Assembly (NCBI GenBank): GCA_043800345.1
Contig: JAZDNB010000035.1
Span: 10,430 to 74,429 of the forward strand
DNA length: 64,000 bases
Direction of reading: 5' to 3'
Source of the DNA: Candidatus Omnitrophota bacterium
GTDB taxonomy: Bacteria > Omnitrophota > Gorgyraeia > VGKN01
The position numbers and the translations under genes were made by a program. Numbering within the stretch: position 1 is the stretch's first letter; each line of letters begins with the position of its first letter. The notes beneath the pieces were generated by a model that was given only the letters and a program-made list of their open reading frames with translations, was not told the DNA's origin and searched no databases. Shown one piece after another: positions 17,545 through 36,878 of the stretch.

Positions 17545-19260
17545 CTACATATATACCTGCGTTTCCCTGATAACCTCTTCCGGGGTAGTAATACCTTTTA
17601 CTATCTTAAGGAGCCCGTCTTCTCTTAAAGTCCTCATCCCGCGATCCTGGGCACATTTTCTTAAAACCGCCGTCTGCACCTTCTCGGTAATAAGAGACCG
17701 TAGTTCGTCATTCAAAACAAGGAGCTCAAAAATTCCTGTCTGCCCTTTAAAACCGGTGTTGTTACAAATATTACATCCCTTCCCCCTGAAAAACTTTTTT
17801 CCCTTAAGCATCTCCTGAAATCCCAGTTCTGCAATAAGGCTGTCGGAAGGAAAATATTCTTCCTTACAGTGAGTACATATTACCCTTACAAGCCGTTGGG
17901 CTAGTATTGCCTCTAAGGTTGAATTTATCAAAAATGGTTCAATACCCATATCAATAAGTCTCGTGATTGCACCGGGGGCATCATTGGTGTGAAGCGTACT
18001 AAATACCAAATGCCCCGTAAGAGAAGCCTGAATCGATATCTGCGCTGTTTCGGGGTCTCTTATTTCACCCACCATTATGATATCAGGGTCATGGCGCAAG
18101 ATATGGCGAAGCGCTTGCGCGAAGGTGAGGTTTATCTTCGGCCTTATACCGATTTGGATAACGCCATCTACGTCGTACTCGACGGGGTCCTCTATGGTAA
18201 TGATCTTATACTCTATCTTATTTATTGCTTTTAGGGAAGAATATAACGTGGTAGTTTTTCCGCAGCCTGTGGGCCCCGTAACAAGAACTATTCCGTTAGG
18301 CTTATTAATAATATGTCTAAAAATGAGTTTTGAATCTTCCTCAAGACCCAGTTGATCAAGAGAGAGCCCGGTCAGGCCTTTATCGAGTATTCTTATTACC
18401 ACACCTTCTCCGAATACCATCGGCAGAGACGATATCCTAAGGTCTACATCCCGTGCTTCGATTTCCATCAACACTCTTCCGTCCTGGGGCAGGCGGTTCT
18501 CTGCGATATCCATATTTGCCATAACCTTAATCCTCGATATAAGCGCAAGGGTTAAACTCTTCGGCGGTTGCATAACGTCAAAGAGCACGCCATCGACTCT
18601 ATATCTGACTTTGAGCCCCTCCTCAAAAGGTTCAAAATGTATATCCGTTGCCCTGTCTTTTATAGCATTAAGGATAATAAGGTTTAACAGCTTAATGATG
18701 GGCGTCTGACTTGCCAGTTCCTGTAATTTCTCAATATCAACTACGTTTTTTATTGCCGCATTCTGGGCGTCTCCCGTAGCACTTTTTATATCTTTAAGTA
18801 TCTCTTCAAGCGATTCCTCTTTTGTTTCATAATATTTCTTGAGCGAGCGCTCAATCTGTTCTTCTGTGGCAGACACCCTCTTAATCGCTACTCCCAACAT
18901 AAAACGCAGGTCGTCGATTACGTTCACGTTAAGTGCATCCGCCATAACAACAGTGAGGGTATTGTCTTTAAATTCGATGGGCAAGATTTTGTACACTTTC
19001 GCAACTGAGGCAGGGATCATTTCGATTACATCTTTAACGATTTTTATTTCATCTAAATTGATAATTTTTATACCTGCCTGTAATCCCAATACGTCCAGGA
19101 CATTCTGCTCCTTAACGAAACCCAGTTCTATTAGGGTCCTACCGAGAGGCTTACCGCTATGTTTTTGTTCTTCAAGGGCTATTTCAAGTTGGCTTGAAGT
19201 TATGAGCCCTCTTTCAAGCAGCAGGCTGCCTAATTGAATGCGCTTTGTCGGTTTTGTCAT
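17545..19260 (-). CDS. gspE: Assembly ATPase GspE/PilB family (paralogue 1)
   Basis: 571 aa. It has an N-terminal T2SSE_N/MshEN-like repeat (QLGSLLLERGLITSSQLEIALEEQ). The Walker A is GPTGCGKTTT, with Cys at the usual Ser position. Asp and His boxes are present, as is a tetracysteine CTHC...CNIC. Confidence 0.9.
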   Translation of the reverse strand: MTKPTKRIQLGSLLLERGLITSSQLEIALEEQKHSGKPLGRTLIELGFVKEQNVLDVLGLQAGIKIINLDEIKIVKDVIEMIPASVAKVYKILPIEFKDNTLTVVMADALNVNVIDDLRFMLGVAIKRVSATEEQIERSLKKYYETKEESLEEILKDIKSATGDAQNAAIKNVVDIEKLQELASQTPIIKLLNLIILNAIKDRATDIHFEPFEEGLKVRYRVDGVLFDVMQPPKSLTLALISRIKVMANMDIAENRLPQDGRVLMEIEARDVDLRISSLPMVFGEGVVIRILDKGLTGLSLDQLGLEEDSKLIFRHIINKPNGIVLVTGPTGCGKTTTLYSSLKAINKIEYKIITIEDPVEYDVDGVIQIGIRPKINLTFAQALRHILRHDPDIIMVGEIRDPETAQISIQASLTGHLVFSTLHTNDAPGAITRLIDMGIEPFLINSTLEAILAQRLVRVICTHCKEEYFPSDSLIAELGFQEMLKGKKFFRGKGCNICNNTGFKGQTGIFELLVLNDELRSLITEKVQTAVLRKCAQDRGMRTLREDGLLKIVKGITTPEEVIRETQVYM

Positions 19261-20339
19261 TACTTATCCTTATACTCCTCTTTAAATTGAAGTCCGAAAT
19301 GTTCCGGATCAAATGCCTTCTCCAGGGCGGTTTCATACGTAATTGATCCTTTTTTGTAAAGTTCCGCAAGAAAGGCATCAAATGTTTTCATACCATACTT
19401 GCCGCCGGTTTGGATATCGGACGTAATCGAGTAGGTCTTTTTTTCCCTTATCAAGTTCTGTATTGAAGTCGTGGTAATCATAATTTCAAAACAGGCTATT
19501 CTGCTTGAGCTATCCGCTCTTACCAATAACTGCTGGCATATAATTGCAATAATAGAAGTGGATAACTGGACTCGTATCTGCTCCTGCTGGGTCACGGGGA
19601 AAACCTCAATGATCCTATCAACCGTCTTTGCCGCTGAAGTCGTATGAAGCGTTGCAAAAACCAAATGACCTGTTTCGGCCGCCAGTATAGCTGCTTCGAT
19701 GGTAGCAAGGTCGCGCATTTCCCCTACAAGGATAACGTCGGGGTTCTGCCTTAATGACCTTATGACGGCGTCAGAAAAGGAAGGCACGTCAACGCCTATT
19801 TCTCTCTGAGAGATAATACTTTTTTTGTGCGTATGATAATATTCTATCGGGTCCTCAATAGTGATAATATGGGCGGCTCGATGCACATTGATACAGTCGA
19901 TCATCGTGGCGAGCGTGGTAGTTTTACCGCACCCGGTGGGCCCGGTAACAAGAACCAACCCGCGCGGTTTATTAAGGAGGGTCTTTACTATGTCCGGGAT
20001 ACCTATATCGTCAAAGGAATAAAGCCGCGACGGTATCATCCTCAAACAAAGACTATGTACACCTTTTTGTTTAAATACGGAGACCCTGAATCTGGCAACA
20101 TCTCCGAAGGCAAGACCGAATTCTACGGTTCCGTGTTGCCTTAATTTGCCCTGATGGTCATCGGCGGTAATGGATTTCGCAAGACGTTCTGTATCAAAAG
20201 CGGTAAGCGGTTCATTGCCTACGTTTTCGATCTCTCCGTTAATCCTTAGTACAGGCGGTTTATCTACGCAAAGGTGTATATCGGACGCGTTCCTATGCAC
20301 GCACATTTCAAGAATGTGATTTATTTCGACCATGGGCAA
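19260..20339 (-). CDS. pilT: Retraction ATPase PilT
   Basis: 359 aa, with no T2SSE_N domain. The Walker A is GPTGCGKTTT. The PilT-type C-terminal motif is SIQNLIREKKTYSITSDIQTGGKYGMKTFDAFLAELYKKG. Its stop overlaps the gspE start region by 1 nt. Confidence 0.9.
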   Translation of the reverse strand: MPMVEINHILEMCVHRNASDIHLCVDKPPVLRINGEIENVGNEPLTAFDTERLAKSITADDHQGKLRQHGTVEFGLAFGDVARFRVSVFKQKGVHSLCLRMIPSRLYSFDDIGIPDIVKTLLNKPRGLVLVTGPTGCGKTTTLATMIDCINVHRAAHIITIEDPIEYYHTHKKSIISQREIGVDVPSFSDAVIRSLRQNPDVILVGEMRDLATIEAAILAAETGHLVFATLHTTSAAKTVDRIIEVFPVTQQEQIRVQLSTSIIAIICQQLLVRADSSSRIACFEIMITTTSIQNLIREKKTYSITSDIQTGGKYGMKTFDAFLAELYKKGSITYETALEKAFDPEHFGLQFKEEYKDK

Positions 20340-20360
20340 CCTCCCAATGTTAAAATTATG

Positions 20361-22040
20361 TTATACAACCACAGGTTGAGTAATGCGTATTACTTCCTGT
20401 ATAGTTGTTATGCCATTTTTTATTTTTTCTATCCCGTCCTCTCGTAGGCTCTTAAAGCCAAAATGCTGTGCTCTTTCCCGTATGATATTGCTGGGAGTTT
20501 TAGTTGTTATAAGTATCCGTATTTCATCATTAAGAACCAAAAGCTCAAAAATCCCTATTCGACCTCTGTAGCCTGTATGGTTACATTTTGCACAACCCCT
20601 TCCTCTGTAGAACATCATACCGAGAATTTCATGAGAAGATAATCCGAGTGCCGTCATTTCGTCCTTGGCGGGCTTATGCGGCTCTTTACATTCTTTACAC
20701 AATATCCTCACAAGCCGCTGGGCTAATACAGCCTGAAGCGTAGACGCTACTAAATATGGTTTTATATTCATGTCTATCAAGCGCGTTATCGCACCGGGGG
20801 CGTCATTCGTATGGAGGGTACTAAAAATCAAATGTCCCGTAAGGGCGGCCTGTATCGCAATCTGCGCCGTTTCAAAATCTCTTATTTCCCCAACCATTAA
20901 TATATCGGGCGCCTGCCGCAACATTGACCGAAGACCGCTTGCAAAAGTCAATCCTACCTGCGGTTTTATCTGAATCTGATTGATTCCCTGAAGCTGATAT
21001 TCTACCGGATCTTCAATAGTGATAAGTTTTTTGTCGGAGGTATTGATATGACTTAATGCCGCATACAGTGTGGTAGTCTTCCCGCTGCCGGTAGGCCCTG
21101 TAACCAACATAACTCCGTTAGGCAATTTTATTAAACGTTCAAATATCTCAATATTTCTTTTTGAAAAACCAAGTTCATGTATATGTAAAATTGCCCTGTC
21201 AAGAATTCTTAAGACCATGCTTTCGCCGTACAGGCTCGGCAAAACGGAAACCCTAAGATCCAATTCCCTATCTTCCACCTTTATTTTTATTCTCCCGTCC
21301 TGCGGTAAACGTTTTTCAGCGATATCCAAATTAGACATTATCTTCAACCGGCTTATGACGGTATTCTTGAGGGTTTTGGGCGGGGCTTGCACTTCGGTAA
21401 GAAGGCCGTCTATCCTATACCGTATACGAAATTTATCCTTAAACGGTTCCAGATGGATATCGGAAGCCCGGTTTCTTGCCGCTTCTTGTATGATGAGGCT
21501 CACTAATCGTACCACAGGGGCTTCATCTTCCGGGGTAAGCGTAGCCTCGGAAGATTTGGAGATTTCCGATTCATCTATCTCCTGAATTATAGTACGCAAA
21601 TCGTCCTTCTTTGAACCATAATATTTCTCAAGCGCCTCTCTGATGTCATGTTCACTAACGAGTACGAGCGACATATCCTTTTGTAAAAAAAGTTCTAAAT
21701 TTTCCTGGGCTAAAAAATTAAAAATATTGTCCGTCGCACAAATAAGCTTGCCCAACTCCAGATCCAGGGGTATCAACCTATGGCGCTTGGCAAAACTGGC
21801 AGGTATTGTATCTAATGCAGAAGGGGAGATTTCAATCTTATCTAATGTAGACGGTATAATGCCGATTTGAGAAATAAGGATTGGCCCTAAATTTTCGCTT
21901 GTAATATACCCGAGTTTTACAAAGATTTCGCTTAAGGCTAGCTGAGATTCTCTTTGCAAGGTAAGCGCCTCTTTCAGCTGCTCTTCATTTATCACGCCGA
22001 GGTTCTCGAGTGTTTCCTTAATAAGTTGCTGTCTGATCAT
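20361..22040 (-). CDS. Assembly ATPase PilB/GspE family (paralogue 2)
   Basis: 559 aa. It has a T2SSE_N-like N-terminus, Walker A GPTGSGKTTT, a tetracysteine CKEC...CAKC and the C-terminal GITTIQEVIR. Its start is 6 nt after the larC stop. Confidence 0.9.
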   Translation of the reverse strand: MIRQQLIKETLENLGVINEEQLKEALTLQRESQLALSEIFVKLGYITSENLGPILISQIGIIPSTLDKIEISPSALDTIPASFAKRHRLIPLDLELGKLICATDNIFNFLAQENLELFLQKDMSLVLVSEHDIREALEKYYGSKKDDLRTIIQEIDESEISKSSEATLTPEDEAPVVRLVSLIIQEAARNRASDIHLEPFKDKFRIRYRIDGLLTEVQAPPKTLKNTVISRLKIMSNLDIAEKRLPQDGRIKIKVEDRELDLRVSVLPSLYGESMVLRILDRAILHIHELGFSKRNIEIFERLIKLPNGVMLVTGPTGSGKTTTLYAALSHINTSDKKLITIEDPVEYQLQGINQIQIKPQVGLTFASGLRSMLRQAPDILMVGEIRDFETAQIAIQAALTGHLIFSTLHTNDAPGAITRLIDMNIKPYLVASTLQAVLAQRLVRILCKECKEPHKPAKDEMTALGLSSHEILGMMFYRGRGCAKCNHTGYRGRIGIFELLVLNDEIRILITTKTPSNIIRERAQHFGFKSLREDGIEKIKNGITTIQEVIRITQPVVV

Positions 22041-23264: not shown

Positions 23265-24017
23265 TCATCTGTTTATGAGGTCTGCAAAATAACCTGCGCC
23301 AAAACCATTGTCTATATTCACTACGACAATACCCGAGGCACAACTATTGAGCATCGTAAGAAGCGCTGCTAAACCTCTAAAACTTGCTCCATACCCTATG
23401 CTGGTAGGAACAGCAATAACCGGTTTATCGGTCAACCCCGCTACTACACTCGGAAGCGCTCCTTCCATGCCGGCAACCACGATAATGACCGAGGCGCGAT
23501 GCAACAATCTTTGTTTATCGAGAAGCCTATGAATACCCGCGACGCCTACATCATACAAGCGTTTAACCCGGTTACCCATAACCTCCAAGGTAACCGCGGC
23601 CTCTTCGGATGCCGGGATATCAGATGTCCCGCCTGTTATGATTAATACAACACCTTTCTTTTTTTTATACATTCTTCTTTGTATTTTTCTATAGGCGATT
23701 TTAGCTTCTTCATTATATAAAAGTCCCGGGATTGATTTTTTTATAGCGGAAAATGTCGCGCTTTCCAGCTTAGTTAAGAGGAGGGGCTGGGAGTTTCTGC
23801 TTAAGATACCGGCAATTTTAATAATCTGAGAAGGGGTTTTGTTTTGACAAAAAAGAACTTCCGGAAAACCCTTTCGTAACATTCTGTGGGTATCGACATT
23901 AGCAAATTTAATATTTTTATACGGCATATCTTTTAAAAAAGTGAGTATCTGCCCGGCGGATACCTTATTTTTTTTAAAATCCTTAAGCAGCTTTTCTATA
24001 ATGTTTCTTGTGCTCAT
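23265..24017 (-). CDS. larB: Nickel-pincer cofactor biosynthesis protein LarB (PurE-like)
   Basis: 250 aa. It has the PurE-like core VVLIITGGTSDIPASEEAA...VVAGMEGALPSVVAG and the C-terminal VVNIDNGFGAGYFA. Confidence 0.85.
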   Translation of the reverse strand: MSTRNIIEKLLKDFKKNKVSAGQILTFLKDMPYKNIKFANVDTHRMLRKGFPEVLFCQNKTPSQIIKIAGILSRNSQPLLLTKLESATFSAIKKSIPGLLYNEEAKIAYRKIQRRMYKKKKGVVLIITGGTSDIPASEEAAVTLEVMGNRVKRLYDVGVAGIHRLLDKQRLLHRASVIIVVAGMEGALPSVVAGLTDKPVIAVPTSIGYGASFRGLAALLTMLNSCASGIVVVNIDNGFGAGYFADLINR

Positions 24018-24019
24018 GG

Positions 24020-24322
24020 TTAGAATTTGAGAATGATAATAAGCATAACAATGGCGAGGATTATGGAAATAATATAGAATCCGTTAAAATAGAAAAAATC
24101 CTTTAGATGTTCGAAAAAAACATTTTTCTCATGATGGGTTAATGGCTTTGCTTTTTTGCTGAAACTCATCCTAAAATGGTCAAGATCCTCTTTTTTAAAC
24201 CGCACATAGCTTCCCCCTATTTTATACGCCGGGATCTTTCCTTTTTTTACGAGTCTTTCTAATTTCCTCTCGGAAATATGTGCGTATGCCGCAGCATCCT
24301 TTATAGTCAGTAACTTATCCAT
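24020..24322 (-). CDS. Excisionase-type HTH (HTH_17-like) protein with C-terminal transmembrane anchor
   Basis: 100 aa. The N-terminus LLTIKDAAAYAHISERKLERLVKKGKIPAYKIGGSYVRFKKEDLDHF matches the excisionase/MerR-type HTH pattern. The C-terminus FYIISIILAIVMLIIILKF is a single TM helix. Confidence 0.65.
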   Translation of the reverse strand: MDKLLTIKDAAAYAHISERKLERLVKKGKIPAYKIGGSYVRFKKEDLDHFRMSFSKKAKPLTHHEKNVFFEHLKDFFYFNGFYIISIILAIVMLIIILKF

Positions 24323-24388
24323 AGTTTGTCATCCTATATTTTTAAATTTCACCTCGAGCAGAAAAGAACACGCTGAACACATCAGGAA

Positions 24389-24946
24389 CTACCGTAGAAT
24401 ATTATCCTCTACCCAGTCGTCTATATCCTGCTTTCTAAACTTTATAACCCCTCCTTCGCTACTACAGGGTATCTTTCCGGAATTAATCCATTCGAGTATC
24501 TTAGAGGCATCAACCTCTAAATAATGCGATACCTCTTCGATGGTAAGAAATTGCGAAGAAGTTTCGCGCCTGTTGCTACTTTCTGGAAGTTCATTCTGTT
24601 CTTTTTCTTTTATCATTTCGCACGTACCGTTAAACAGGGCGCCTTCCTCAACAATAATGGACCGTGCAATAATATGGCCGTCCACCCGTGAGGTTTTCGC
24701 TAGTTTCACCTCTTTAGAGGCCATCAACTCTCCGGAGAATGTACCAAATATGATAACGGAATCGCCTTCGACAGTCGCACAAACCACTGCATCCTCCCCA
24801 ATAACAAGAATCCCTTTTGTCGACAGGCTTCCTTCGAATTCCCCGTTAATCCGCAACTTTACCGGGTTTTTAAATTCAAGGGTTCCCTTCATCCCGGCTT
24901 CTATCTCAAGATAATCATCACGCCCGCGAGAACGTTTCTTAAACAT
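24389..24946 (-). CDS. Bactofilin-domain protein fused to C-terminal excisionase-type HTH
   Basis: 185 aa. Residues ~20-110 show the bactofilin beta-helix repeat pattern (GTLEFKNPVKLRINGEFEGSLSTKGILVIGEDAVVCATVEGDSVIIFGTFSGEL...). After a charged linker the C-terminus is FLTIEEVSHYLEVDASKILEWINSGKIPCSSEGGVIKFRKQDIDDW. Confidence 0.65.
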   Translation of the reverse strand: MFKKRSRGRDDYLEIEAGMKGTLEFKNPVKLRINGEFEGSLSTKGILVIGEDAVVCATVEGDSVIIFGTFSGELMASKEVKLAKTSRVDGHIIARSIIVEEGALFNGTCEMIKEKEQNELPESSNRRETSSQFLTIEEVSHYLEVDASKILEWINSGKIPCSSEGGVIKFRKQDIDDWVEDNILR

Positions 24947-24972: not shown

Positions 24973-25632
24973 TCAATATTCCCATTTTGCGCTCTTTATA
25001 CCTTTGATACCTAAAATATCTCCGGTTATAGGTTCATCATCCGAATCGTTGAAAAATTTCAGATTTATAATATAGGTAGCCTTGGAACCGTTTTCATCTT
25101 TCAAAATCTCCATATCCCGTATCTCCGCCCTGTAATTATTAAGTATATCCTTTATTTGTTTTAATTCCTCCGTTAGGCCCGTACCTATTACAGCCAATGT
25201 CCTGTACCAATTTTTTTTAAGGAAGGTTCTTTCTATTCTTGTCAGAAAAAATAGAGAGGAGAACGCTAAAAATGTGGTAACAAGGGCTCCTTTATAAAAA
25301 CCGCAGCCGATCGCAAGCCCTATGCCGGCAACACACCACAAGCTTGCGGCTGTGGTAAGTCCCCGTACGGAAGCCCTAAATCTGAGAATGGTGCCTGCAC
25401 CCAAAAAACCGATCCCGCTTACCACCTGAGCAGCTATTCTCGAAGGATCAACAACTTTATTGAAAAGATTATACATCTCTATAGAGGTAAGCATAATAAG
25501 ACAAGAACCTATACCTACCAGTATGTGTGTCCTAAAACCTGCCGCCCTGCCATGCAATTCCCTCTCGAAACCGATTATTCCGCTCAAGATAACTGCAAGC
25601 AATAACCTAATTACAATTTCTAAATCTGCCAT
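24973..25632 (-). CDS. MgtC/SapB family membrane protein
   Basis: It has the MgtC signature LLLAVILSGIIGFERELHGRAAGFRTHILVGIGSCL and a C-terminal soluble domain. The probable start is MADLEIV at 25632 (track start 25659). Confidence 0.8.
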   Translation of the reverse strand: MADLEIVIRLLLAVILSGIIGFERELHGRAAGFRTHILVGIGSCLIMLTSIEMYNLFNKVVDPSRIAAQVVSGIGFLGAGTILRFRASVRGLTTAASLWCVAGIGLAIGCGFYKGALVTTFLAFSSLFFLTRIERTFLKKNWYRTLAVIGTGLTEELKQIKDILNNYRAEIRDMEILKDENGSKATYIINLKFFNDSDDEPITGDILGIKGIKSAKWEY

Positions 25633-26656
25633 ACCCGTCTCCTTTATAGTTTGAATCAAATCCTAAATTGCTTATGGCGCTTACGTAAAAATCAGAGATA
25701 AACCTTTTTTTTCTAAAAAGATACTCACCGAGGGCGGCTACCATAGCCCCATTATCAAGACATAATCTGCTATCGGGAAAAATAACTTCAAGATCGTATC
25801 GGTGTGCGGATTTGGTAAAATATTCCCTTAAAGCCCTGTTTATACTCACCCCGCCTCCGATTACTATCGTTTTTGTCTTTTTGAGAGTGCAGGCCAGTTT
25901 TACTTTTTCAAATAAAGTTTCAATAATAATTTTTTGAAACGTGCTTGCTACATCGACTTTGCGTATTTTTTTATTCCGAGCCTGCGCATCTCTTACGTAA
26001 TACAGCACGGCTGTCTTAAGACCGCTGAAAGTAAAATCAAGGGATTGCATCTGGCCTTTTGTATAAGAAAATTTTGTTTTTTCTGGGTCACCTTTTTGCG
26101 CAAGGGATTCGATGATCGGTCCTCCCGGATAACCGAACCCAAGAATTTTGCTGACTTTATCAAAGGCCTCGCCCGCTGCATCATCGGTAGTTTGACCGAG
26201 GAGTGTAAATGAGTCCGCATCCTTAACATACGCCAGACACGTATGGCCGCCGGATATTATCAAACTGATACAAGGAAAGGGGATGCTTTTTTTACCGATA
26301 CATGCACTGAACGTATGCGCCTGCAGATGGTTTATGCCGAGGATTGGCACACCTAACGAATAACCCAATGCCTTCGCAAATGAAATACCCACTAATAAAG
26401 AACCGACCAATCCCGGTCCATATGTAAAGGCTATCAGATCTATTTGGTTTCTTTTTATGCGTGCGTGTATAAGTGCCTTATTGCATACTGCGTCGATAGT
26501 CTCAATATGGTAGCGAGTAGCTATTTCAGGAACTATACCGCCGTATTGTTTGTGAAATCGTAGGCTTGAGGCTACTTCATTAGATAAAATCTTTCCGTTT
26601 TTCAGGACCGACACAGCCGTCTCATCGCAGGAAGTCTCTATGCCGAGCGTTATCAT
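25607..26656 (-). CDS. tsaD: tRNA N6-adenosine threonylcarbamoyltransferase TsaD
   Basis: MITLGIETSCDETAVSVL is the TsaD/Kae1 N-terminal signature, and HLQAH and GGVSIN motifs are present. The probable start is at 26656. The 3' end overlaps the mgtC-family start. Confidence 0.9.
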   Translation of the reverse strand: MITLGIETSCDETAVSVLKNGKILSNEVASSLRFHKQYGGIVPEIATRYHIETIDAVCNKALIHARIKRNQIDLIAFTYGPGLVGSLLVGISFAKALGYSLGVPILGINHLQAHTFSACIGKKSIPFPCISLIISGGHTCLAYVKDADSFTLLGQTTDDAAGEAFDKVSKILGFGYPGGPIIESLAQKGDPEKTKFSYTKGQMQSLDFTFSGLKTAVLYYVRDAQARNKKIRKVDVASTFQKIIIETLFEKVKLACTLKKTKTIVIGGGVSINRALREYFTKSAHRYDLEVIFPDSRLCLDNGAMVAALGEYLFRKKRFISDFYVSAISNLGFDSNYKGDGYGRFRNCN

Positions 26657-26730
26657 ATCACCCCCCATGTATCTCTTCATGTTGCAAAATAATACAGTAA
26701 CGGTTCCTTATTATTTTAAACAGTACGTGT

Positions 26731-27849
26731 TCATTTTACAAGAGACGAAAGTTTAACAAATTGAATTCCTTCCCTTTCAAACTCGTCCATCGTCTCCTTT
26801 AATACTGAAATGGTAACCGGTCTGTCATGACAGATACCTATTGCAGCACCGTCACGCTTTGCGATATAGACTAAGTGCCTCAATTGTGTTTTTATGTAAT
26901 CGGGGTCTTCTTCATTGTCGATGAATGTCGCTCGTTTTGCAAATCTTATACCGGTTTGCCGGGCAACGTTTTCGCATATGCTCTTCGTAGTGACAAAACT
27001 ATCAAGGAAAAAAAGGTTGCGTTTTTTTAATTCGTCAAAAATTATTTTCATTAACGCCTTATCTTCGGTAGCTTTAGAACCCTGATGGTTTGATATCCCC
27101 TTTATATACGGTACATTTTTTATGCAACTGTCTAGCATGGTGAGTATTTGTTGTTTATCCATGTGCGTAAAAATGGTATCCTTCTCATTTTCCGCATTTT
27201 TATTATGCGGCTCCAGCGGTAAATGCAGAATAATCTCTATATTCCTTGCACTCATCTGTTTTGCTATAGATTGAGAATACTGCAGATTCGGGAGGATTGC
27301 GACGGTCAGAGATTTTCCAATCTGAAACAGGCTATCCAGATTGCGCAAACTATAACCCCAGTCATCGATGACAATGGCAATATACGCGGGGGTATAGGGC
27401 TTTAGTAAAGGGGGTTCCTTATATGATACTTTTTTGGCAGGTATTTTTTGTTTCAGTTTTAAGGAAAAAATCTCGTAACCTTTATATGCAATGGATGCAT
27501 CGAGAACATTTCTGTCAGCTTTAAAATCTATCTGGCTTTTTGTTACATCGCACCTTATCCCCCTTAGCGCAGATTTAAGTCTCGCCTGAAAATTTCTAAG
27601 CGGAAATTTTGACGGGACCGCATATTCTTTATATATGTGTTCGAAGGAAATACGTTTTATTTTGGCTTTATGAGAAATTTCTTGCGTAAGGTATGCTTCG
27701 TTTACGCCTTCCTCTAAAAGGAGTCGGGTGATAGTCTTGTTGATAAGATCCGATTTCTTAGAAAGCGTACGCGATACGTTCATAAATGAAAATATCCACC
27801 ATATACACAGGCACGCAACTATTAAAGTAATAAAAAATTTTAATCGCAC
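26731..27849 (-). CDS. Divergent polysaccharide deacetylase family protein (YibQ-like)
   Basis: 372 aa with an N-terminal TM. Motifs are IAIVIDDWGYS, ILHLPLEP and ISNHQGSKATED. Confidence 0.7.
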   Translation of the reverse strand: MRLKFFITLIVACLCIWWIFSFMNVSRTLSKKSDLINKTITRLLLEEGVNEAYLTQEISHKAKIKRISFEHIYKEYAVPSKFPLRNFQARLKSALRGIRCDVTKSQIDFKADRNVLDASIAYKGYEIFSLKLKQKIPAKKVSYKEPPLLKPYTPAYIAIVIDDWGYSLRNLDSLFQIGKSLTVAILPNLQYSQSIAKQMSARNIEIILHLPLEPHNKNAENEKDTIFTHMDKQQILTMLDSCIKNVPYIKGISNHQGSKATEDKALMKIIFDELKKRNLFFLDSFVTTKSICENVARQTGIRFAKRATFIDNEEDPDYIKTQLRHLVYIAKRDGAAIGICHDRPVTISVLKETMDEFEREGIQFVKLSSLVK

Positions 27850-27888: not shown

Positions 27889-29280
27889 TTACGGCCGGGC
27901 ATCGGTTATACCTTCAACCGGCTTGGCCCTGTTTTTACTTTTAGGTCTTTCTTCTTCAAACTTCTTATAAATTTTAATTCCTTTGATAATATCAAGCGCC
28001 CTTAAGAGCTGGATATCGGTTATTTTTTCGGTTGGTTTTCTTTCTTCTTTTTTAGCTTCCTGTTCGCCTTGAGGTTTTTCTTCTTTGACCTTGCGGTCTT
28101 TTTCTATTTTTTCAAACACATCCTCTGTTTCATCTTTCGACGAGGCTTCTTGTTTAAATTCCTCCTCGTCAATAACCACATCGGGTAGTATACCTTCCCC
28201 GTGGATAGATCTGCCCAGCGGAGTAAAATATTTACTGGTAGTAAGCCTTATAGCAGAACCGTCTCGCAAAGGAATAACGGTCTGAACAGAACCCTTGCCA
28301 AATGTCTTCGTCCCGACGATAATCGCTCGTTTGTGATCCTGAAGGGCGCCCGCGAGTATCTCTGAAGCACTGGCACTGCCATTATTTACCATAACGACAA
28401 GGGGGTACTCCAAAAACGGTCTGGGGTATCTCGCCTTAAACTCCATATTCTGACTCTTTATCCTGCCTTTTGTATAAACAACCATATCCCCGGGTGCTAG
28501 AAACCGTTCGGTAATATCAACCGCAGAATTGAGCAATCCGCCAGGATTATTTCTAAGGTCTATGATAAGACTATCTATCCCCTTTTTTATTAAATTTGTT
28601 AGTGCCGCGTCAAAATCCCTGAGACTATTTTCTCTGAATTCAACCAATCTGATATAGCCGATATTATCCTCAAAAACCTTTGCTTCTTTTATATTCTTTA
28701 ATTTTATAATATCGCGCATAATAGTAAATTCTAAGAGCTCTTTTTCTTTATCCCTAAGAATGGTAAGGCTCACCTTTGTACCGGCTTTACCTCTTAGTTT
28801 TTTGACCGCCTCCGCCAGCGTTATATCCCGCGTAGGCTCCTCGTCAATCTTAACAATCTTATCATTTGGTTTTAAACCCGCCCTATCAGCAGGCGTTGAG
28901 TCTATCGGGGCTATGACGGTAAGCAAATCATCTTTAATACCAATTTCAATTCCTATGCCTCCGAACTCGCCTTCCGTATCAATCTTCATTTCATTATATA
29001 AATCCGGGTCCATAAATTGGCTGTGCTTGTCCAAACTTAAGAGCATACCTTTGAGTGCCCCGTATATCAGGTCTTTCGGCTTAACCTCTTCCACGTAATC
29101 AGACTGAATAGTAGTAATTACATCGGCAAAAAGTTCCAGTTCAGTGTAAAAATCAGCTGGCGAGCTTTTCTTTTGAGTCTCACAGCTTACTGTTTCCGGT
29201 GCAGATACTGCTAAAAGAGCGATGACCATACTAGCCGTTACAACACGGATAAAACCCTGCACGTCTTTAGATATATTCAT
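27889..29280 (-). CDS. ctpA: C-terminal processing peptidase, S41 family
   Basis: 463 aa. It has a signal/anchor, a PDZ region (GGIGIEIG...AGLKPNDKIVKID) and the S41 catalytic region VVMVNNGSASASEILAGALQD...GKGSVQ. The tail is Lys/Glu-rich. Confidence 0.85.
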   Translation of the reverse strand: MNISKDVQGFIRVVTASMVIALLAVSAPETVSCETQKKSSPADFYTELELFADVITTIQSDYVEEVKPKDLIYGALKGMLLSLDKHSQFMDPDLYNEMKIDTEGEFGGIGIEIGIKDDLLTVIAPIDSTPADRAGLKPNDKIVKIDEEPTRDITLAEAVKKLRGKAGTKVSLTILRDKEKELLEFTIMRDIIKLKNIKEAKVFEDNIGYIRLVEFRENSLRDFDAALTNLIKKGIDSLIIDLRNNPGGLLNSAVDITERFLAPGDMVVYTKGRIKSQNMEFKARYPRPFLEYPLVVMVNNGSASASEILAGALQDHKRAIIVGTKTFGKGSVQTVIPLRDGSAIRLTTSKYFTPLGRSIHGEGILPDVVIDEEEFKQEASSKDETEDVFEKIEKDRKVKEEKPQGEQEAKKEERKPTEKITDIQLLRALDIIKGIKIYKKFEEERPKSKNRAKPVEGITDARP

Positions 29281-32628: not shown

Positions 32629-33642
32629 TCACCTATTGTCTGTCGAATCCCTAATGATCAGTTGTGGGTTAAATAATTTCCTTACAACCAAGCGGGATGT
32701 TTTTTGAAAGGAGATAAGTTCAATTAACCGCAGACAGGCCTGATAAGCTATCTCACCTATAGGCTGATATACCGTGGTCAAAGGCGGGTCAATGTGTTCA
32801 CAGAGCGGATGATTATCATACCCCACGAGCGCAATGTGGGAGGGGATTTTCTTTTTGCTTCTTTTTATTGCCTGTATGGCACCGATGGCCATTTTATCAT
32901 TTGCCGCAAAAATAGCATCCGGAGGGATCTTAAGTGAGAGTAATTTTTCCGTGGCAACCCGACCCTTGTTGCAATCAAAATATCCGAATTGCACATATTT
33001 TTTCCTAAAGGGTATGTGAGCCTCGGCTAATGCCCGTTTATAGCCTTTAAATCTATCATCGGCATTTATCCAATTTTTATGGCCGTGGATAAATGCGATT
33101 CTTTTTCTGCCGTGAGCTATCAAATATGCGGTTGCCGCATATCCCCCCTTTATGTTATCCGTATCAAATGAATTAAACCCTCTGTATGAAGCATTGATAA
33201 GAACGAGCGGTATGCGGTTAGACTTCATTTTATATAGTTCGGGGTAATCGTCTTGAGCACTGGCGGTAATAAGTAATCCTGCAACCAGTCTGCTCTTATA
33301 TAATTTTAAACATTCATCATTATTGTATCTTTCCTGCGCAAACAACATAAGTTGATAACCTTTTTCTTTTACTGCTCGCTCAACCCCCCGGAGCACCTCC
33401 TGGATATAAAATTCCGGTTCTCCCCCAAAGGCACCGCGGGGAAACAATAAACCGATTACATTCGTCCTCTTTGAGGCTAGTACCGAAGCATAAAAATTAG
33501 GGGTATAATTATTTTTTTTTAGACATAAAAGAATCCTCTTGCGCACGGCGGAAGAAACATATCCTTCATTTTTTATTGCTCGCGAGAGTGTCCGGCGGGA
33601 TAAACGTAGTTTCCTTGCAATTTTTTCCAGTGATAACTTCAT
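32629..33642 (-). CDS. LacI-family transcriptional regulator
   Basis: 337 aa. It has an N-terminal HTH (LEKIARKLRLSRRTLSRAIKN) and a periplasmic-binding-protein-like sugar-binding core (VIGLLFP..., VGYDN). It starts 20 nt after the upstream glycosidase-like gene. Confidence 0.85.
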   Translation of the reverse strand: MKLSLEKIARKLRLSRRTLSRAIKNEGYVSSAVRKRILLCLKKNNYTPNFYASVLASKRTNVIGLLFPRGAFGGEPEFYIQEVLRGVERAVKEKGYQLMLFAQERYNNDECLKLYKSRLVAGLLITASAQDDYPELYKMKSNRIPLVLINASYRGFNSFDTDNIKGGYAATAYLIAHGRKRIAFIHGHKNWINADDRFKGYKRALAEAHIPFRKKYVQFGYFDCNKGRVATEKLLSLKIPPDAIFAANDKMAIGAIQAIKRSKKKIPSHIALVGYDNHPLCEHIDPPLTTVYQPIGEIAYQACLRLIELISFQKTSRLVVRKLFNPQLIIRDSTDNR

Positions 33643-33661: not shown

Positions 33662-36600
33662 TTAATCTTCGGTTACACTGATAGAGTTCCGATAAGGTAA
33701 ACTTCTGAATTCTATCGGTTTCTTACCGGCCTTTTTAAAAGGTATTGTAACTACAAAACCGTCGGGCGGGGTGGCATCTCCCTCTATATTAAGAAGAAGT
33801 TTCCTGTTACGATAACTAATGCTATAACTGATAGTCCCATAATAGGTGGGCAAATTTTTGACCGAGACTTCTTCCCCTCCCTCTAACCATGATGTACTTA
33901 TCCCGTCTGCTAAAATCAGTTTTCCTTCTTTTTCATATACAAAAAGATTTCTTACTGCGGTTATGTATTCCGCTCCGATCCACGTATGGGGCATATCGCC
34001 AACATATTGGCCCAACCTGTAATCACTTATCACGACTTCTGCCCAATGATTCCAACTGCGCGGGCGCATTACGGTGAGGAAGTACCGCAACATCTCCAGG
34101 GCCCTCTCTTTTTGTCCCATCATGAGGAATGCATTAACCGATCTGATCTCGTAAGGAGTAAACGAGCCTTTCCAGTTTTTATTAGACCTCGGAAGAAACG
34201 TTTCAGAGTAGTATTTCTCGAATGTATTACTTATCTGTGGTTTTGGCAAATTCTGGTATTCATCGCAGGGAAATATCGCGATTGCGGTTGAGGTTGGGTC
34301 AAAATCTCCTTTTTCGGCACACCCGGGAATATACCCGATGTGTTTTACTTGCATAACGAGGTTTAATGAATCATATAAACTCTTTTTGAAATCGGCCATC
34401 TCGGTTTTTATCCACTGTAAAGCATTATCCTTTCCCAGTAAAGTTGCAATCGCCTCTGCATCTTTCCACCCCTTCAAGACCCAAAAATCGTCCCAATAAC
34501 TATGCTGCGGGGGAAAATACCCCTCATGACTATTGGACTGCGGAAGTATTCCATAAAAAATCTTCTTTTCTGGTGGGCCGTTTTTAAATTCATCCGATAA
34601 TCTTTGCTTTCTTATCTCAATAAGAAATTGCAAGGCTTTTTCTATATATGGAAATTTTTCTGACAGAAATACCTTATCTTTTGTAAACTTATAGTATTCT
34701 GACAACGCATAAATAAATTCGCCTTGCGAATCATATTCCTTCCAATCTTTGCACCATACGGGCATACCTTCTTTTTCCAATATAAATGGGATCATACCGT
34801 TTGCGTATTGGAGGCGTGATACTAACTCCAAAAAATTTTTTACTTCCTTCTGATGTCCCATTCTCAAAAGTGCCGCCCCGATAACCGCTCCATCGCGCAT
34901 CCATCCGCGCTTATAATTTCTTGAGCCCGGCTGAATCATTTCACCGTCGTTGTTTATGAGTATATAGGCCAAGTTGGCCTTAAGGGTATTTATTATTTCC
35001 GTCTCCGGAATATTAATCTGGACCTTGCTTAGTTTTTCCTCCCAGTAGTCCCTGGTTTTAGCAATGAGATCGTTGAAATATGCAGGCAAGTTTTCGTTTG
35101 CAGAAAGATCAAGTTGGATCTCACCGTGGAGCGGAATAACGTAAAAAAAGTCCATTGCTGGCAGTCCCCGCGGCGGGAGGGTAAAATTATACTCCAGCGC
35201 CCCTGAGGCATATCCCGCTTCGTCATTCACTATTGCATTTTTGGGAAGCTTCCCTTCTCTGATAACATTTATAATATCCCCTTCTGCAAAGGTAACCGCA
35301 CCAAAATTATCGGGTTTTGAGAGCGGTTGCATAAGTATCGTTTTGTTTGCCTTAACGACAGCACCGTCATACTCAAGAGAGCGCAGTTCTGTTAAACCCC
35401 CGAAATGCCAGGGGGGATTCACCTGAAACGGTCTTATGGTCAAATAAAGTTTACCTTTTACCTGTTTTTGAGAGGTATTCTCCAATGTATACCATACAAA
35501 CGTACTGGACTTTCCTCTCTCGCCATATGCACATAACTTCTGAGTGAGCCGTATTCCGTTATATTGCCACGTCACCGTAGGAATAGGAAGGTAACCGTTT
35601 TCCAGAGACTGTGTCACCTTAGAATTCATGGCGGTAATAAATTTACCGTCTATGTACAAATACGGCATTAAAGAACAACTTTTACTATAGGGTTCAATGG
35701 TCCCGTCTTCGCATAAAAGACTTTCTCGCTCATCGCCGTCAACGCCTACCACTGTCCAATAGGCCTGCTTCCTATACACCCATTTCGGAAAATACCCCGC
35801 AGGGGATTCTTCCGCTAACACCTCGTAATATTTTTGAGGGGAGGCAGATTCATCCTGCCCCTTGAGGGTTATCTCTTTGACGCAGTAACGGGAGCCTGAG
35901 GATTGCCTGCAGATTATCTTTAAAAAGCGCACCCTGGTTACCGGAACGTAAAGCAGATCCTTTGCGCCATTACCGTCCTTCTTGGAGTACATTGATTTCC
36001 ACATGATATTATCTAAAGAACCATATACCTCATATGATGTTGCATGGGTGCTTCCCCAATTTATCTGGATACCGCCTATATCCTTCTCTTTTCTTAGGTC
36101 AATCAAAATCCATTCCTCGTTACCTCCGGTACTTATCCACGCGGTATTCATATTACCGTCCATGACAGGCTCGGCATCTTTATGTTTCCGACTTGAAGAT
36201 ACGGTTATAGCAGGTTGTTCATCCGCTCCTTTTACCTTAATTTCCCATAAGGAATACCCCCAGGCGGTTGAGCGTTTTTTACATAAAATTTTAATGTACC
36301 GAACGGTCGACTTTTTAAAATAAATATCATCCGTCTTCCCGTCGCTATCATCTGTTGCGTATACAGTTTTAAACGTACGTGCGTCATTCGATAACAAAAT
36401 TTCATACGACTGGGCAAAAGCCTGTTCCCAATGTAACGTTAGGCCCGATATCGCGCTGGGGCTTCCCAAATCAAGCAGCACCCATTGAGGATCCGAAAAC
36501 TCACTTGACCACCGGGTATTTATCTTATCGTCAATCAAATAGTCGGAGTGATACGAATCATTTTCCAGGGAAGATACGGAAACTCTTATTGCGGTTGCAA

Positions 36601-36727
36601 GGCCGGGAAATGATAAAAGGAAAGTTGCTAGCAAAACTAAATGGAACACCCCACGGGCAAGCCCGTGGTACCTAAATTTACCCCGACTCGTAAGATATGC
36701 AGAAATTCTCTTCGATAATTTCTGCAT
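33662..36727 (-). CDS. Secreted protein with two F5/8 type C (discoidin) domains and a C-terminal six-hairpin (GH15-like) glycosidase-like domain
   Basis: The probable start is ATG 36727, giving MQKLSKRISAYLTSRGKFRYHGLARGVFHLVLLATFLLSFPGLATA (signal peptide). The track ORF extends to GTG 36871. Discoidin patterns are IDDKINTRWSS...WVLLDLG and MDGNMNTAWIS...WILIDL. The (alpha/alpha)6-like region is NYKRGWMRDGAVIGAALLRMG. Confidence 0.6.
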   Translation of the reverse strand: MQKLSKRISAYLTSRGKFRYHGLARGVFHLVLLATFLLSFPGLATAIRVSVSSLENDSYHSDYLIDDKINTRWSSEFSDPQWVLLDLGSPSAISGLTLHWEQAFAQSYEILLSNDARTFKTVYATDDSDGKTDDIYFKKSTVRYIKILCKKRSTAWGYSLWEIKVKGADEQPAITVSSSRKHKDAEPVMDGNMNTAWISTGGNEEWILIDLRKEKDIGGIQINWGSTHATSYEVYGSLDNIMWKSMYSKKDGNGAKDLLYVPVTRVRFLKIICRQSSGSRYCVKEITLKGQDESASPQKYYEVLAEESPAGYFPKWVYRKQAYWTVVGVDGDERESLLCEDGTIEPYSKSCSLMPYLYIDGKFITAMNSKVTQSLENGYLPIPTVTWQYNGIRLTQKLCAYGERGKSSTFVWYTLENTSQKQVKGKLYLTIRPFQVNPPWHFGGLTELRSLEYDGAVVKANKTILMQPLSKPDNFGAVTFAEGDIINVIREGKLPKNAIVNDEAGYASGALEYNFTLPPRGLPAMDFFYVIPLHGEIQLDLSANENLPAYFNDLIAKTRDYWEEKLSKVQINIPETEIINTLKANLAYILINNDGEMIQPGSRNYKRGWMRDGAVIGAALLRMGHQKEVKNFLELVSRLQYANGMIPFILEKEGMPVWCKDWKEYDSQGEFIYALSEYYKFTKDKVFLSEKFPYIEKALQFLIEIRKQRLSDEFKNGPPEKKIFYGILPQSNSHEGYFPPQHSYWDDFWVLKGWKDAEAIATLLGKDNALQWIKTEMADFKKSLYDSLNLVMQVKHIGYIPGCAEKGDFDPTSTAIAIFPCDEYQNLPKPQISNTFEKYYSETFLPRSNKNWKGSFTPYEIRSVNAFLMMGQKERALEMLRYFLTVMRPRSWNHWAEVVISDYRLGQYVGDMPHTWIGAEYITAVRNLFVYEKEGKLILADGISTSWLEGGEEVSVKNLPTYYGTISYSISYRNRKLLLNIEGDATPPDGFVVTIPFKKAGKKPIEFRSLPYRNSISVTED

Positions 36728-36810
36728 ACTCGTAGGGGTTATCCCCCTACTTTGTGAACAGCTTGCCCATTTAGTGACATCCCCCGAAGCAGTTTTTTCT
36801 TCGCATTCAT

Positions 36811-36828
36811 CCGCGTGCATGCACGCGG
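36811..36828. promoter_or_regulatory. Perfect 18-bp palindrome CCGCGTGCATGCACGCGG in the 5' leader of the glycosidase-like gene (candidate auxiliary operator or RNA hairpin)
   Basis: Read directly from the sequence. It is GC-rich in an AT-rich context and lies about 45 nt downstream of the predicted TSS. Confidence 0.4.
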
Positions 36829-36864
36829 TCTTCTGCGAAGGGGGATAAAATATGCGTATTTTTG

Positions 36865-36878
36865 TGCCCACGTGGGCA
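36865..36878. promoter_or_regulatory. Perfect 14-bp palindrome TGCCCACGTGGGCA abutting the -10 box (candidate LacI-family operator)
   Basis: Read directly from the sequence. It has the central CG typical of LacI-family operators and covers the predicted transcription start. Confidence 0.45.

Follow-up and report, generated by a model that had tools for sequence, protein, structure and literature searches.

A bactofilin fused to a winged-helix domain is encoded beside a predicted tail-anchored winged-helix paralogue in Omnitrophota

Omnitrophota is an uncultivated phylum of ultra-small bacteria. In a 64,000-nucleotide stretch of Candidatus Omnitrophota DNA (contig JAZDNB010000035.1, positions 10,430–74,429; referred to below as the window, with positions counted from its first letter), we found two adjacent genes, A and B, whose products carry homologous winged-helix domains of the helix-turn-helix (HTH) type. 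In protein A this domain is fused to the C-terminal side of a bactofilin, and in protein B it forms the N-terminal part of a small protein that ends in a predicted transmembrane (TM) helix. The winged helix of A is acidic and has lost canonical residues with which its structural relative BldC contacts DNA, and the two genes remain neighbours in every informative related genome. We tentatively suggest that A and B may constitute a two-protein, membrane-attached cytoskeletal module of Omnitrophota that is held together by pairing of the two winged helices, a possible reading rather than a probable one.

Both genes lie on the minus strand (Table 1). A GGAGG Shine-Dalgarno motif is found 7 nt 5' of the ATG of gene A, the spacing between A and B is 66 nt with no terminator predicted between them, and the next gene, larB, starts 2 nt past the stop codon of B. 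The products are 100% identical to the NCBI entries MFH0839333.1 (P0001 in our protein set; from a 77 kb contig of a Candidatus Omnitrophota metagenome-assembled genome, MAG) and MFH0839332.1 (P0199), respectively. Two plus-strand open reading frames (ORFs) that overlap A (24540–24914 and 24524–24691) were rejected as genes because the minus-strand frame has strong profile matches and phylum-wide conservation.

Bactofilins are widespread scaffold proteins that assemble into filaments without the help of nucleotides. Their end-to-end polymerisation needs a conserved C-terminal phenylalanine (Phe105 in the Thermus protein, Phe130 in Caulobacter BacA), and the terminal regions of bactofilins are usually short disordered tails. 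Protein A matches the Bactofilin profile (Pfam PF04519) at residues 17–110 with an E value of 1.3e-22 and a score of 80.3 bits against a cutoff of 27.9. In its AlphaFold2 model, residues 13–111 form a beta-helix of six beta-windings with predicted local distance difference test (pLDDT) scores of 93–97. Foldseek matched this beta-helix to the Thermus bactofilin 6rib (34% identity, target TM-score 0.77), to 6ria, which is by its entry title the structure of the Thermus bactofilin F105R mutant, and to Caulobacter BacA (2n3d, target TM-score 0.76). Because Phe105 of protein A is aligned with Phe105 of the Thermus protein and Phe130 of BacA and is near-invariant in the family, protein A probably can polymerise.

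The N-terminal pattern M[A]FKKK..EEK is near-universal among the proteins A of the 83 A–B pairs that we compared (MFKKRSRG in the window). These N-termini resemble MFSKQAKS and MFSRKTE, with some members fitting less well (MQIGGKKR, MVRRREEE). The membrane-targeting sequence of Caulobacter BacA comprises residues 2–8 and requires F2 and K4/K7 (PMC12448750); given the resemblance, protein A may bind the membrane by its N-terminus. The linker that joins the beta-helix to the HTH domain is 19–21 amino acids (aa) long in the clade that includes the window, compared with ∼ 3 aa in most other members, where the HTH would therefore sit at the C-terminal polymerisation interface.

The second domain of protein A matches HTH_17 (PF12728) at residues 133–182 (E 9.8e-13, 48.6 bits against a cutoff of 27), and protein B matches the same profile at residues 4–50 (E 4.3e-14, 52.9 bits). 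Both also score above the cutoff of 28.8 bits of the NCBI family TIGR01764 ('excise'), with 37.9 bits for A and 48.9 bits for B. The two domains are homologous to each other, with 31% identity over 48 aa in BLASTP (E 4e-8) and a probability of 96.6% (E 5e-10) in an hhalign comparison of the two family profiles. The AlphaFold2 models give both domains the beta-alpha-alpha-beta-beta-alpha topology of a winged helix. In A, a disordered linker (residues 116–130) precedes the winged helix (133–182, pLDDT 83–88); in B, the winged helix (4–55) is followed by a flexible linker and by helices at residues 66–79 (juxtamembrane) and 81–99 (pLDDT ∼ 91).

Both HTH domains were matched by Foldseek to RdfS, BldC, the Xis protein of mycobacteriophage Pukovnik, RacA and DNA-binding domains of the MerR family, with root-mean-square deviations (rmsd) of 1.4–2.0 over ∼ 50 residues against RdfS, BldC and Xis (for A, 1.5 against RdfS and 1.8–1.9 against BldC). 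The best matches of the B domain were BldC–DNA, RdfS, Xis and RacA–DNA. At the sequence level, a search of PDB chains with the A domain returned only a spurious match to trypsin and no solved DNA-binding protein, so that it was the fold search that placed the domain; the B profile weakly matched RacA, BldC, RdfS and Xis (E 0.06–0.3). Neither protein belongs to the BldC family NF033787 (16.6 bits for A and 13.0 bits for B against a cutoff of 77 in NCBIfam). Scores of A and B against Pfam MerR_1 were 14.2 and 17.3 bits, below the cutoff of 21.6, and neither matched DUF4004 (PF13171, the BacR family) at E ≤ 0.1. The coiled-coil dimerisation helix or effector domain of classical MerR proteins is absent from both, as A stops after the winged helix and B continues into a linker and the TM helix.

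The last ∼ 20 residues of protein B are hydrophobic (FYIISIILAIVMLIIILKF). A 17-residue segment with a mean Kyte-Doolittle hydropathy above 2.0 is found within the last 26 aa of all 83 B homologues, with 1–6 residues beyond it. Thus, B is predicted to be a tail-anchored protein with a single C-terminal TM helix and a cytoplasmic N-terminal domain. The most conserved part of B is an aromatic juxtamembrane motif, with the family consensus DFFYFNDFY, in which D75, F82 and Y83 are 100% conserved among the 83 sequences and F76, Y78, F79, N80 and D81 92–98% conserved. A first-pass annotation made from the DNA alone had described a bactofilin–HTH fusion beside a membrane-anchored HTH paralogue, with the same kind of DNA-binding domain in both genes and a single TM helix at the end of the second protein. 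This description held in every particular: the ORFs, the domains (both Pfam profiles score above their gathering thresholds), their homology and the anchor (helix 81–99 in the model and its counterpart in 83 of 83 homologues).

Relatives of the fusion protein are encoded in at least 430 GTDB species representatives, which were recovered with two peptide patterns. Gene order was compared in 80 loci, the best of these 430 representatives; as one clade's best matches they are biased to the majority clade, a bias that was offset by divergent and subclade loci found through exact-protein look-ups. Almost all of the 80 are labelled Omnitrophota. The combination of both Pfam domains occurs in 45 protein clusters at 90% identity, and every named one comes from Omnitrophota. 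Among 1.84 billion representatives of clusters at 50% identity, the fusion profile found 41 matches at E ≤ 1e-30, of which ∼ 20 cover the full profile, and the remaining matches are ordinary bactofilins or HTH proteins; the family is thus narrow in sequence space. Two proteins in which an unrelated N-terminal region is joined to the C-terminal half of a bactofilin and an HTH (P0131, 311 aa, glycosyltransferase-like; P0076, 199 aa, signal-peptide-like) are probably artefacts of gene calling or assembly and not new architectures.

The adjacency of A and B is far beyond chance. In phmmer searches with the window proteins, all 78 informative loci had B next after A and in the same orientation; in the two remaining loci of the 80 (L019 and L066), the DNA stops less than 330 nt past A. 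The median gap between the two genes was 15 nt (83 pairs). Homologues of B are all 98–120 aa long, and the named ones are from Omnitrophota. Next to divergent homologues of A (36–45% identity), an HTH_17 gene of ∼ 100 aa lies immediately downstream in all six loci that have downstream DNA; locus L008 ends right after A and L002 stops within B. Within the long-linker subclade of the window, the order TsaD–MgtC–A–B–LarB–LarC–PilB recurred in three of three further loci, so that the divergent and subclade loci with downstream DNA, nine distinct ones in all, showed the pairing without exception. The flanks are less constant. The gene for an MgtC-family protein is next upstream of A in most loci and is missing in L005/L006, L032 and L064; larB follows B in most loci, with the exceptions of L001, L003, L005 and L009, and in some loci its place is taken by DAGK, DUF2079, an unannotated gene or SNase. 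Since A and B stay together when either flank changes, they form the invariant core of the locus. Both points on which the first-pass annotation could have failed came out in its favour: the HTH region passes the profile searches, and the neighbours are conserved in every informative related genome.

In the complex of BldC with DNA, Lys26 and Arg30 contact bases, Thr27, Thr29 and Lys33 contact phosphates, and His46, Arg47 and Arg48 of the wing also contact the DNA (PMC5859096). We read the equivalent positions from an alignment of BldC with distinct domains of the two families, 83 from A and 83 from B, and what follows on DNA contacts is built on this one reference structure. In family A, the position of Lys26 is occupied by Asn (62%) or Ser (24%), that of the base-reading Arg30 by Glu (84%; Glu152 in the window) or Asp (14%), that of Lys33 by Asn (84%) and that of Arg22 by Glu (96%). 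The position of Arg47 is deleted, which makes the wing one residue shorter. Lys or Arg is retained at the positions of Arg48 and Arg41, and the family keeps the basic wing residues Lys163 (91%), Lys/Arg169 (96%) and Arg172 (97%). The domain as a whole is acidic in all 83 pairs, with net charges from −5 to 0 and a median pI of 4.9 (−5 and 4.5 in the window).

Family B keeps Lys or Arg at the position of Lys26 (96%), and it has Asp (81%) or Glu (9%) in place of Arg30 and Glu (86%) in place of Lys33. Its wing, PAYK(I/V)GG.Y.RFKK, is highly conserved, with Lys (92%), Arg (100%) and Lys (96%) at the positions of BldC Arg41, Arg48 and Arg50, and Lys34, Arg41 and Lys43 (in B numbering) are each conserved in at least 92% of the sequences. 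The median net charge of the B domain across the family is 0. The BldC-type set of basic residues in both recognition helix and wing is found only in the subclade of the window (Arg19, Arg23, Lys26 and Arg41), whose B proteins carry Lys or Arg at all three recognition-helix positions; in the window, Arg19, Arg23 and Lys26 stand for BldC Lys26, Arg30 and Lys33. It is also this subclade that has both the most acidic A domains (−4 to −5) and the most basic B domains (+5 to +10). Over the 83 pairs, the net charges of the two domains are anticorrelated (Spearman −0.33, p 0.002, without phylogenetic correction).

BldC molecules associate head-to-tail through an interface in which Phe21, Val23 and Trp31 face Leu11, Ile40 and Thr42–Gly44 (PMC5859096). 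The head face is kept in family A, with Leu (100%) for Phe21, Val (93%) for Val23 and Trp (96%) for Trp31, and the tail face is kept in family B (Tyr33 100%, Gly36 89%, Gly37 97%). Three proteins that consist of tandem HTH_17 domains, P0094 (479 aa), P0130 (417 aa) and P0095 (231 aa), with eight, seven and three winged-helix repeats, respectively, score highly against the profile of the A domain and yet are basic, which indicates that the acidic surface is specific to the bactofilin-fused domain. P0095 has an A-like short 'W-x-F' wing.

These observations suggest that the two HTH domains more likely bind each other than that both read DNA. The acidic A domain, its lost DNA-contact residues, the homology and anticorrelated charges of the two domains, the strict pairing of the genes and the retained interface residues of BldC are our reasons for favouring, with the reserve expressed above, the docking of the two winged helices. 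Protein A would assemble into bactofilin filaments that lie along the membrane, each subunit displaying an acidic winged helix that lacks the canonical DNA-reading residues and would be used for docking. This domain would pair with its homologue in the tail-anchored protein B, a winged helix of more basic character, probably head-to-tail as in the oligomers of BldC, Xis and RdfS. B would thereby be clustered along the filament, and the filament would gain an integral-membrane receptor. DNA would be bound at most by B, particularly in the subclade of the window, where B probably also binds DNA and docking of the A domain would compete with that binding.

The nearest characterised systems, BacNOP–PadC–ParB, RacA–DivIVA, BacR–BacE/F and BacA–PbpC, each share one aspect with the Omnitrophota pair, and none of the four has a polymer-fused winged helix or a tail-anchored paralogue. 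In Myxococcus xanthus, the BacNOP scaffold is said to be tied to ParB and ParA through the adaptor PadC, which has a ParB-like domain; a bactofilin scaffold connected with DNA-binding proteins and the organisation of the chromosome was also the model behind the first-pass annotation. Unlike that system, the Omnitrophota locus has no genes for PadC or ParABS, the fold is a winged helix of the MerR/Xis type and the A domain lacks the canonical DNA-contact residues. RacA of Bacillus subtilis (PDB 5i41/5i44) is a MerR-like winged helix tethered to a membrane-associated scaffold, DivIVA, and is among the sequence and fold matches of B, the sequence similarity being marginal (E 0.2). In contrast to B, RacA is soluble, dimerises through a coiled coil and binds DivIVA.

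In B. subtilis, the bactofilins BacE and BacF bind the HTH protein BacR (YhbD, DUF4004), encoded in one operon with them, close to its HTH, draw it to the membrane and inhibit DNA binding by BacR (PMC13649987). The BacR sequence ...SYGQLYRWKR resembles the 'R-W' recognition helix of BldC and MerR, which is mirrored in A as 'E-W'. BacR is a soluble DUF4004 protein of ∼ 210 aa from another phylum; the likeness is functional or architectural only. Here, one HTH is fused to the bactofilin and the other belongs to a protein predicted to be integral and tail-anchored. In Caulobacter, a bactofilin with a targeting sequence, BacA, likewise acts with a single-pass membrane protein, PbpC, whose cytoplasmic part binds the polymer and which, as a bitopic client, reinforces the membrane binding of BacA (PMC12448750). 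PbpC differs from B in that it binds via a short peptide at its N-terminus and carries a large synthase domain in the periplasm, whereas the winged helix of B is folded and next to nothing of B would lie in the periplasm. Both BacE/F–BacR and BacA–PbpC serve as precedents for docking of A and B.

BldC, Xis and RdfS (PMC5859096; PDB 6ama, 4j2n, 8dgl), the best structural matches, share the topology of A and B, and the hydrophobic residues of the BldC head–tail interface are conserved in the pair. Unlike these free-standing basic DNA binders, A is acidic, with Glu at the position of Arg30 and a shorter wing, and has no integrase partner. The Foldseek matches also include CbpM (3ucs) and DafA (9dvi), in which a MerR-like winged helix binds proteins, namely DnaJ-type co-chaperones. 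This use of the same fold for protein binding supports the docking of A and B. The likeness stops at the fold, with no relationship in sequence, and the Omnitrophota locus has no chaperone context.

A crude mutual-information scan of A by B columns, with average product correction (APC), over the 83 pairs (effective number of sequences, Neff, ∼ 36) spoke neither for nor against docking: HTH–HTH column pairs were not enriched (13 in the top 100 against 17.5 expected), and the top pairs were mostly variable linker columns. Several observations weigh against docking. The charge anticorrelation derives largely from one or two clade-level shifts. Both domains retain conserved basic wing residues that are able to contact DNA phosphates or the minor groove. 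Protein A has a putative membrane-targeting sequence of its own, which would make a dedicated membrane receptor partly redundant, and the conservation of B peaks in DFFYFNDFY, not in the HTH, so that the key contact may lie elsewhere. Finally, a more divergent bactofilin–HTH_17 fusion (P0102, 187 aa, in a 12-member cluster; L091, 1743–2306) has an acidic HTH (about −7) and no B-like neighbour, being flanked by two proteins without a Pfam match and an MscS-like multi-pass membrane protein; an acidic HTH can thus function without B.

It is somewhat unlikely that the pair is instead a tether between nucleoid and membrane, in which both winged helices would bind chromosomal DNA, perhaps co-oligomerising head-to-tail as BldC, Xis and RdfS do, and the membrane-bound bactofilin filament and the tail-anchored binder would jointly hold or organise the chromosome by analogy with RacA–DivIVA or BacNOP–PadC–ParB. 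The closest structural relatives are indeed DNA-bound (BldC–DNA, RacA–DNA, the centromere-binding domain of pSK1 Par, RdfS and Xis), and the marginal sequence matches of B are to proteins of this group. The basic wing residues conserved in both families and, in the subclade of the window, the strongly basic B with all three recognition-helix Lys/Arg residues kept would suit such a tether. A filament of DNA-binding domains would also reach high avidity despite weak single contacts, and bactofilins reportedly organise ParABS in Myxococcus. However, the A domain is acidic in every member, with the charge reversed at the base-reading position and the wing shortened, and its sequence detects no solved DNA-binding protein; 90% of the B proteins have Asp or Glu at the base-reading position and the median charge of their HTH is 0; and there are no linked genes for ParA, ParB or SMC.

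The first-pass annotation had proposed a minimal device for anchoring and positioning a chromosome or plasmid, with protein–protein contacts of the HTH domains as its alternative. Of the former, the domains, their homology and the membrane anchor stand, and DNA binding by both HTHs is made less likely by the acidic A domain, its lost contact residues, the Asp or Glu that most B proteins have at the position of Arg30 and the absence of ParAB, of integrases and of plasmid genes within about 15 kb. The alternative fits the data better, and B may still bind DNA, particularly in the subclade of the window. A positioning device of the plasmid or ParABS type was rejected, as no par genes or plasmid hallmarks were found in the ∼ 33 kb around the pair.

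A variant of docking that we consider unlikely is that the acidic HTH of the membrane-bound filament acts as a 'decoy' that captures or releases the tail-anchored, DNA-binding HTH according to the state of assembly. If so, the attachment of the chromosome, or gene expression, at the membrane would be coupled directly to the state of the polymer or of the envelope, and A would be the first polymer of a cytoskeleton to have an HTH module built in. The pair would then be a covalent 'Rosetta-stone' counterpart of BacR–BacE/F, with the coupling of bactofilins to HTH proteins as an ancient general theme.

Quite unlikely, in our judgement, is that the two proteins have independent functions and are only co-expressed. 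B could then be a membrane-bound one-component transcription factor, like ToxR or CadC without a periplasmic sensor, or a nucleoid-associated protein, and the A domain could recruit another client or regulate tail-to-tail polymerisation. The fusion P0102, acidic without a neighbouring B, is in line with such independence, as are the ∼ 3-residue linkers that place the HTH at the polymerisation interface in most members and the conservation peak of B in its juxtamembrane motif and TM helix, which suggests a partner within the membrane. The operon also mixes unrelated housekeeping genes (TsaD, LarB, GatAB), so that adjacency is weak functional evidence. Yet the adjacency of A and B outlasts changes of both flanks, B was not found outside the pairing with A, and the two domains are homologous with charges that shift in a complementary way.

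An origin from a mobile element or defence system, with HTH_17 as an excisionase, a recombination directionality factor or a component of the MAD1 type, is effectively refuted: homologues are annotated at source as 'excisionase family DNA binding protein', match the PHROG excisionases (phrog_66, E ∼ 1e-9 to 1e-10) and hit MAD1 in PADLOC (B, 41.5 bits) and NCBIfam, but the NCBIfam scores (MADS1 NF047737, 38.6 and 41.6 bits) fall far short of the cutoff of 80, the defence and phage-excisionase matches in PADLOC (mad1), PHROGs and NCBIfam are sub-threshold and at the level of the fold only, no integrase, tRNA, attachment context or other defence gene lies within about 15 kb, composition is uniform and the same housekeeping position is kept in hundreds of species, the opposite of what mobile elements show.

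In the full-text literature we found no paper that joins a bactofilin with an excisionase or HTH_17, and the only text on bactofilins and Omnitrophota was an unrelated phylogeny monograph, in line with the remark in the first-pass annotation that no characterised example of the pair was known. To our knowledge, bactofilin clients and the modes of their recruitment have been described in only a few model species. The Omnitrophota pair adds a folded winged helix fused to the polymer and a constant paralogue with a predicted tail anchor, both conserved across an uncultivated phylum. If the domains of A and B pair, they would represent a new and simple coupling of a bactofilin to the membrane, and a DNA-binding fold would have been turned to the docking of proteins; should B bind DNA as well, a cytoskeletal polymer would be linked directly to the nucleoid, with ties to the Bacillus bactofilins that sequester BacR. 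As the two proteins have only 185 and 100 aa, the key predictions would be cheap to test, in vitro and in Escherichia coli, with no need to culture the organism.

Table 1. Features of the 64,000-nucleotide window (positions within the window)
Feature	Position	Strand	Basis or remark
Gene A, bactofilin + winged-helix HTH, 185 aa	24389..24946	minus	ORF; Pfam Bactofilin + HTH_17
A residues 1–8, MFKKRSRG, putative N-terminal membrane-targeting sequence	24923..24946	minus	Phe2 then Lys/Arg
A residues 13–111, bactofilin beta-helix including polymerisation Phe F105	24614..24910	minus	Pfam, AlphaFold2, Foldseek
A residues 112–131, disordered acidic/polar linker	24554..24613	minus	AlphaFold2 pLDDT <50 at 116–130; insertion specific to the subclade of the window
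A residues 132–185, acidic HTH_17 / MerR-Xis-type winged helix	24392..24553	minus	Pfam, fold match
Gene B, predicted tail-anchored winged-helix protein, 100 aa	24020..24322	minus	ORF; HTH_17 match
B residues 1–55, basic HTH_17 winged helix	24158..24322	minus	HTH_17; net charge +6, pI 9.8
B residues 75–83, juxtamembrane aromatic motif DFFYFNGFY	24074..24100	minus	Conservation, 83 sequences
B residues 82–99, predicted C-terminal TM helix (tail anchor), 1 residue beyond	24026..24079	minus	Hydrophobicity, AlphaFold2
MgtC/SapB-family membrane protein, directly upstream of A	24973..25659	minus	Pfam MgtC E 2.6e-41
LarB	23265..24017	minus	NCBIfam LarB 288.5 bits vs cutoff 175
TsaD	25607–26680	minus	Pfam
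PF04748 divergent polysaccharide deacetylase	26731–27849	minus	Pfam
S41 C-terminal processing protease	27889–29280	minus	Pfam
PilB-like ATPase with MshEN domain	20361–22040	minus	
PilB-like ATPase with MshEN domain	17545–19260	minus	
PilT-like ATPase	19260–20339	minus	
PilC	16218–17468	minus	
Pseudopilin	15751–16188	minus	
Pseudopilin	14764–15192	minus	
PilM–PilN fusion	9188–10804	minus	

The pair is set in a chromosomal housekeeping block. The ∼ 33 kb around it encode Mfd, SurA-like peptidyl-prolyl isomerases, PdxA, KsgA, a discoidin-domain protein, a LacI regulator, GatA/GatB, the S41 protease, the PF04748 deacetylase, TsaD, the MgtC-family protein, A, B, LarB, LarC and a cluster that resembles type IV pilus and type II secretion systems. 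No integrase, tRNA, ParA/ParB, SMC, plasmid hallmark or defence gene was found in this region, and base composition is uniform across the window; 'excisionase' is thus a label of the fold and not of the function. The upstream order S41 protease–PF04748 deacetylase–TsaD–(MgtC) is kept in nearly all related loci. The protease and deacetylase genes give the neighbourhood a faint cell-envelope flavour, and since the operon is functionally mixed, we draw no mechanism from its context.

Some of the MAGs that carry this block (L013, L019, L020, L035, L051 and others) are titled 'uncultured Planctomycetales', 'Candidatus Margulisiibacteriota' or 'Candidatus Pacebacteria'. Because they have the same Ctp–deacetylase–TsaD–MgtC–A–B–LarB block, these labels are probably artefacts of MAG pipelines, that is, mislabelled or misbinned records. 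The MgtC-family protein of the window (228 aa) and of its subclade (220 aa in L092 and L093) carries an extra C-terminal domain. In the majority clade it is only 145–152 aa long (cf. L001, L003, L007, L009), and its gene there often overlaps the start codon of A by 1 nt.

The pilus-like cluster (9188–22040, minus strand) lies directly downstream of larC, and a pilB gene follows larC also in the subclade loci L010, L092 and L093. The cluster includes a 714 aa protein (11710–13854, minus strand) whose sole Pfam match is a ComEA-type HHH_3 domain at residues 101–162, so that it could be a DNA-binding component that hints at DNA uptake. The ORFs beside it (13857–14813, 10833–11708 and 15223–15720) gave no Pfam match. 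Near the N-terminus of a 1069 aa protein (33662–36871, minus strand) lie two domains of the F5/8 type C kind (discoidin, galactose-binding-like), and the other ∼ 800 residues of this protein have no Pfam match; the gene of the LacI-family regulator adjoins it at 32629–33642. All plausible genes of the 64 kb are on the minus strand and each 2 kb bin has a negative GC skew, which makes this an unusually long and uninterrupted co-directional stretch (window 1–64000).

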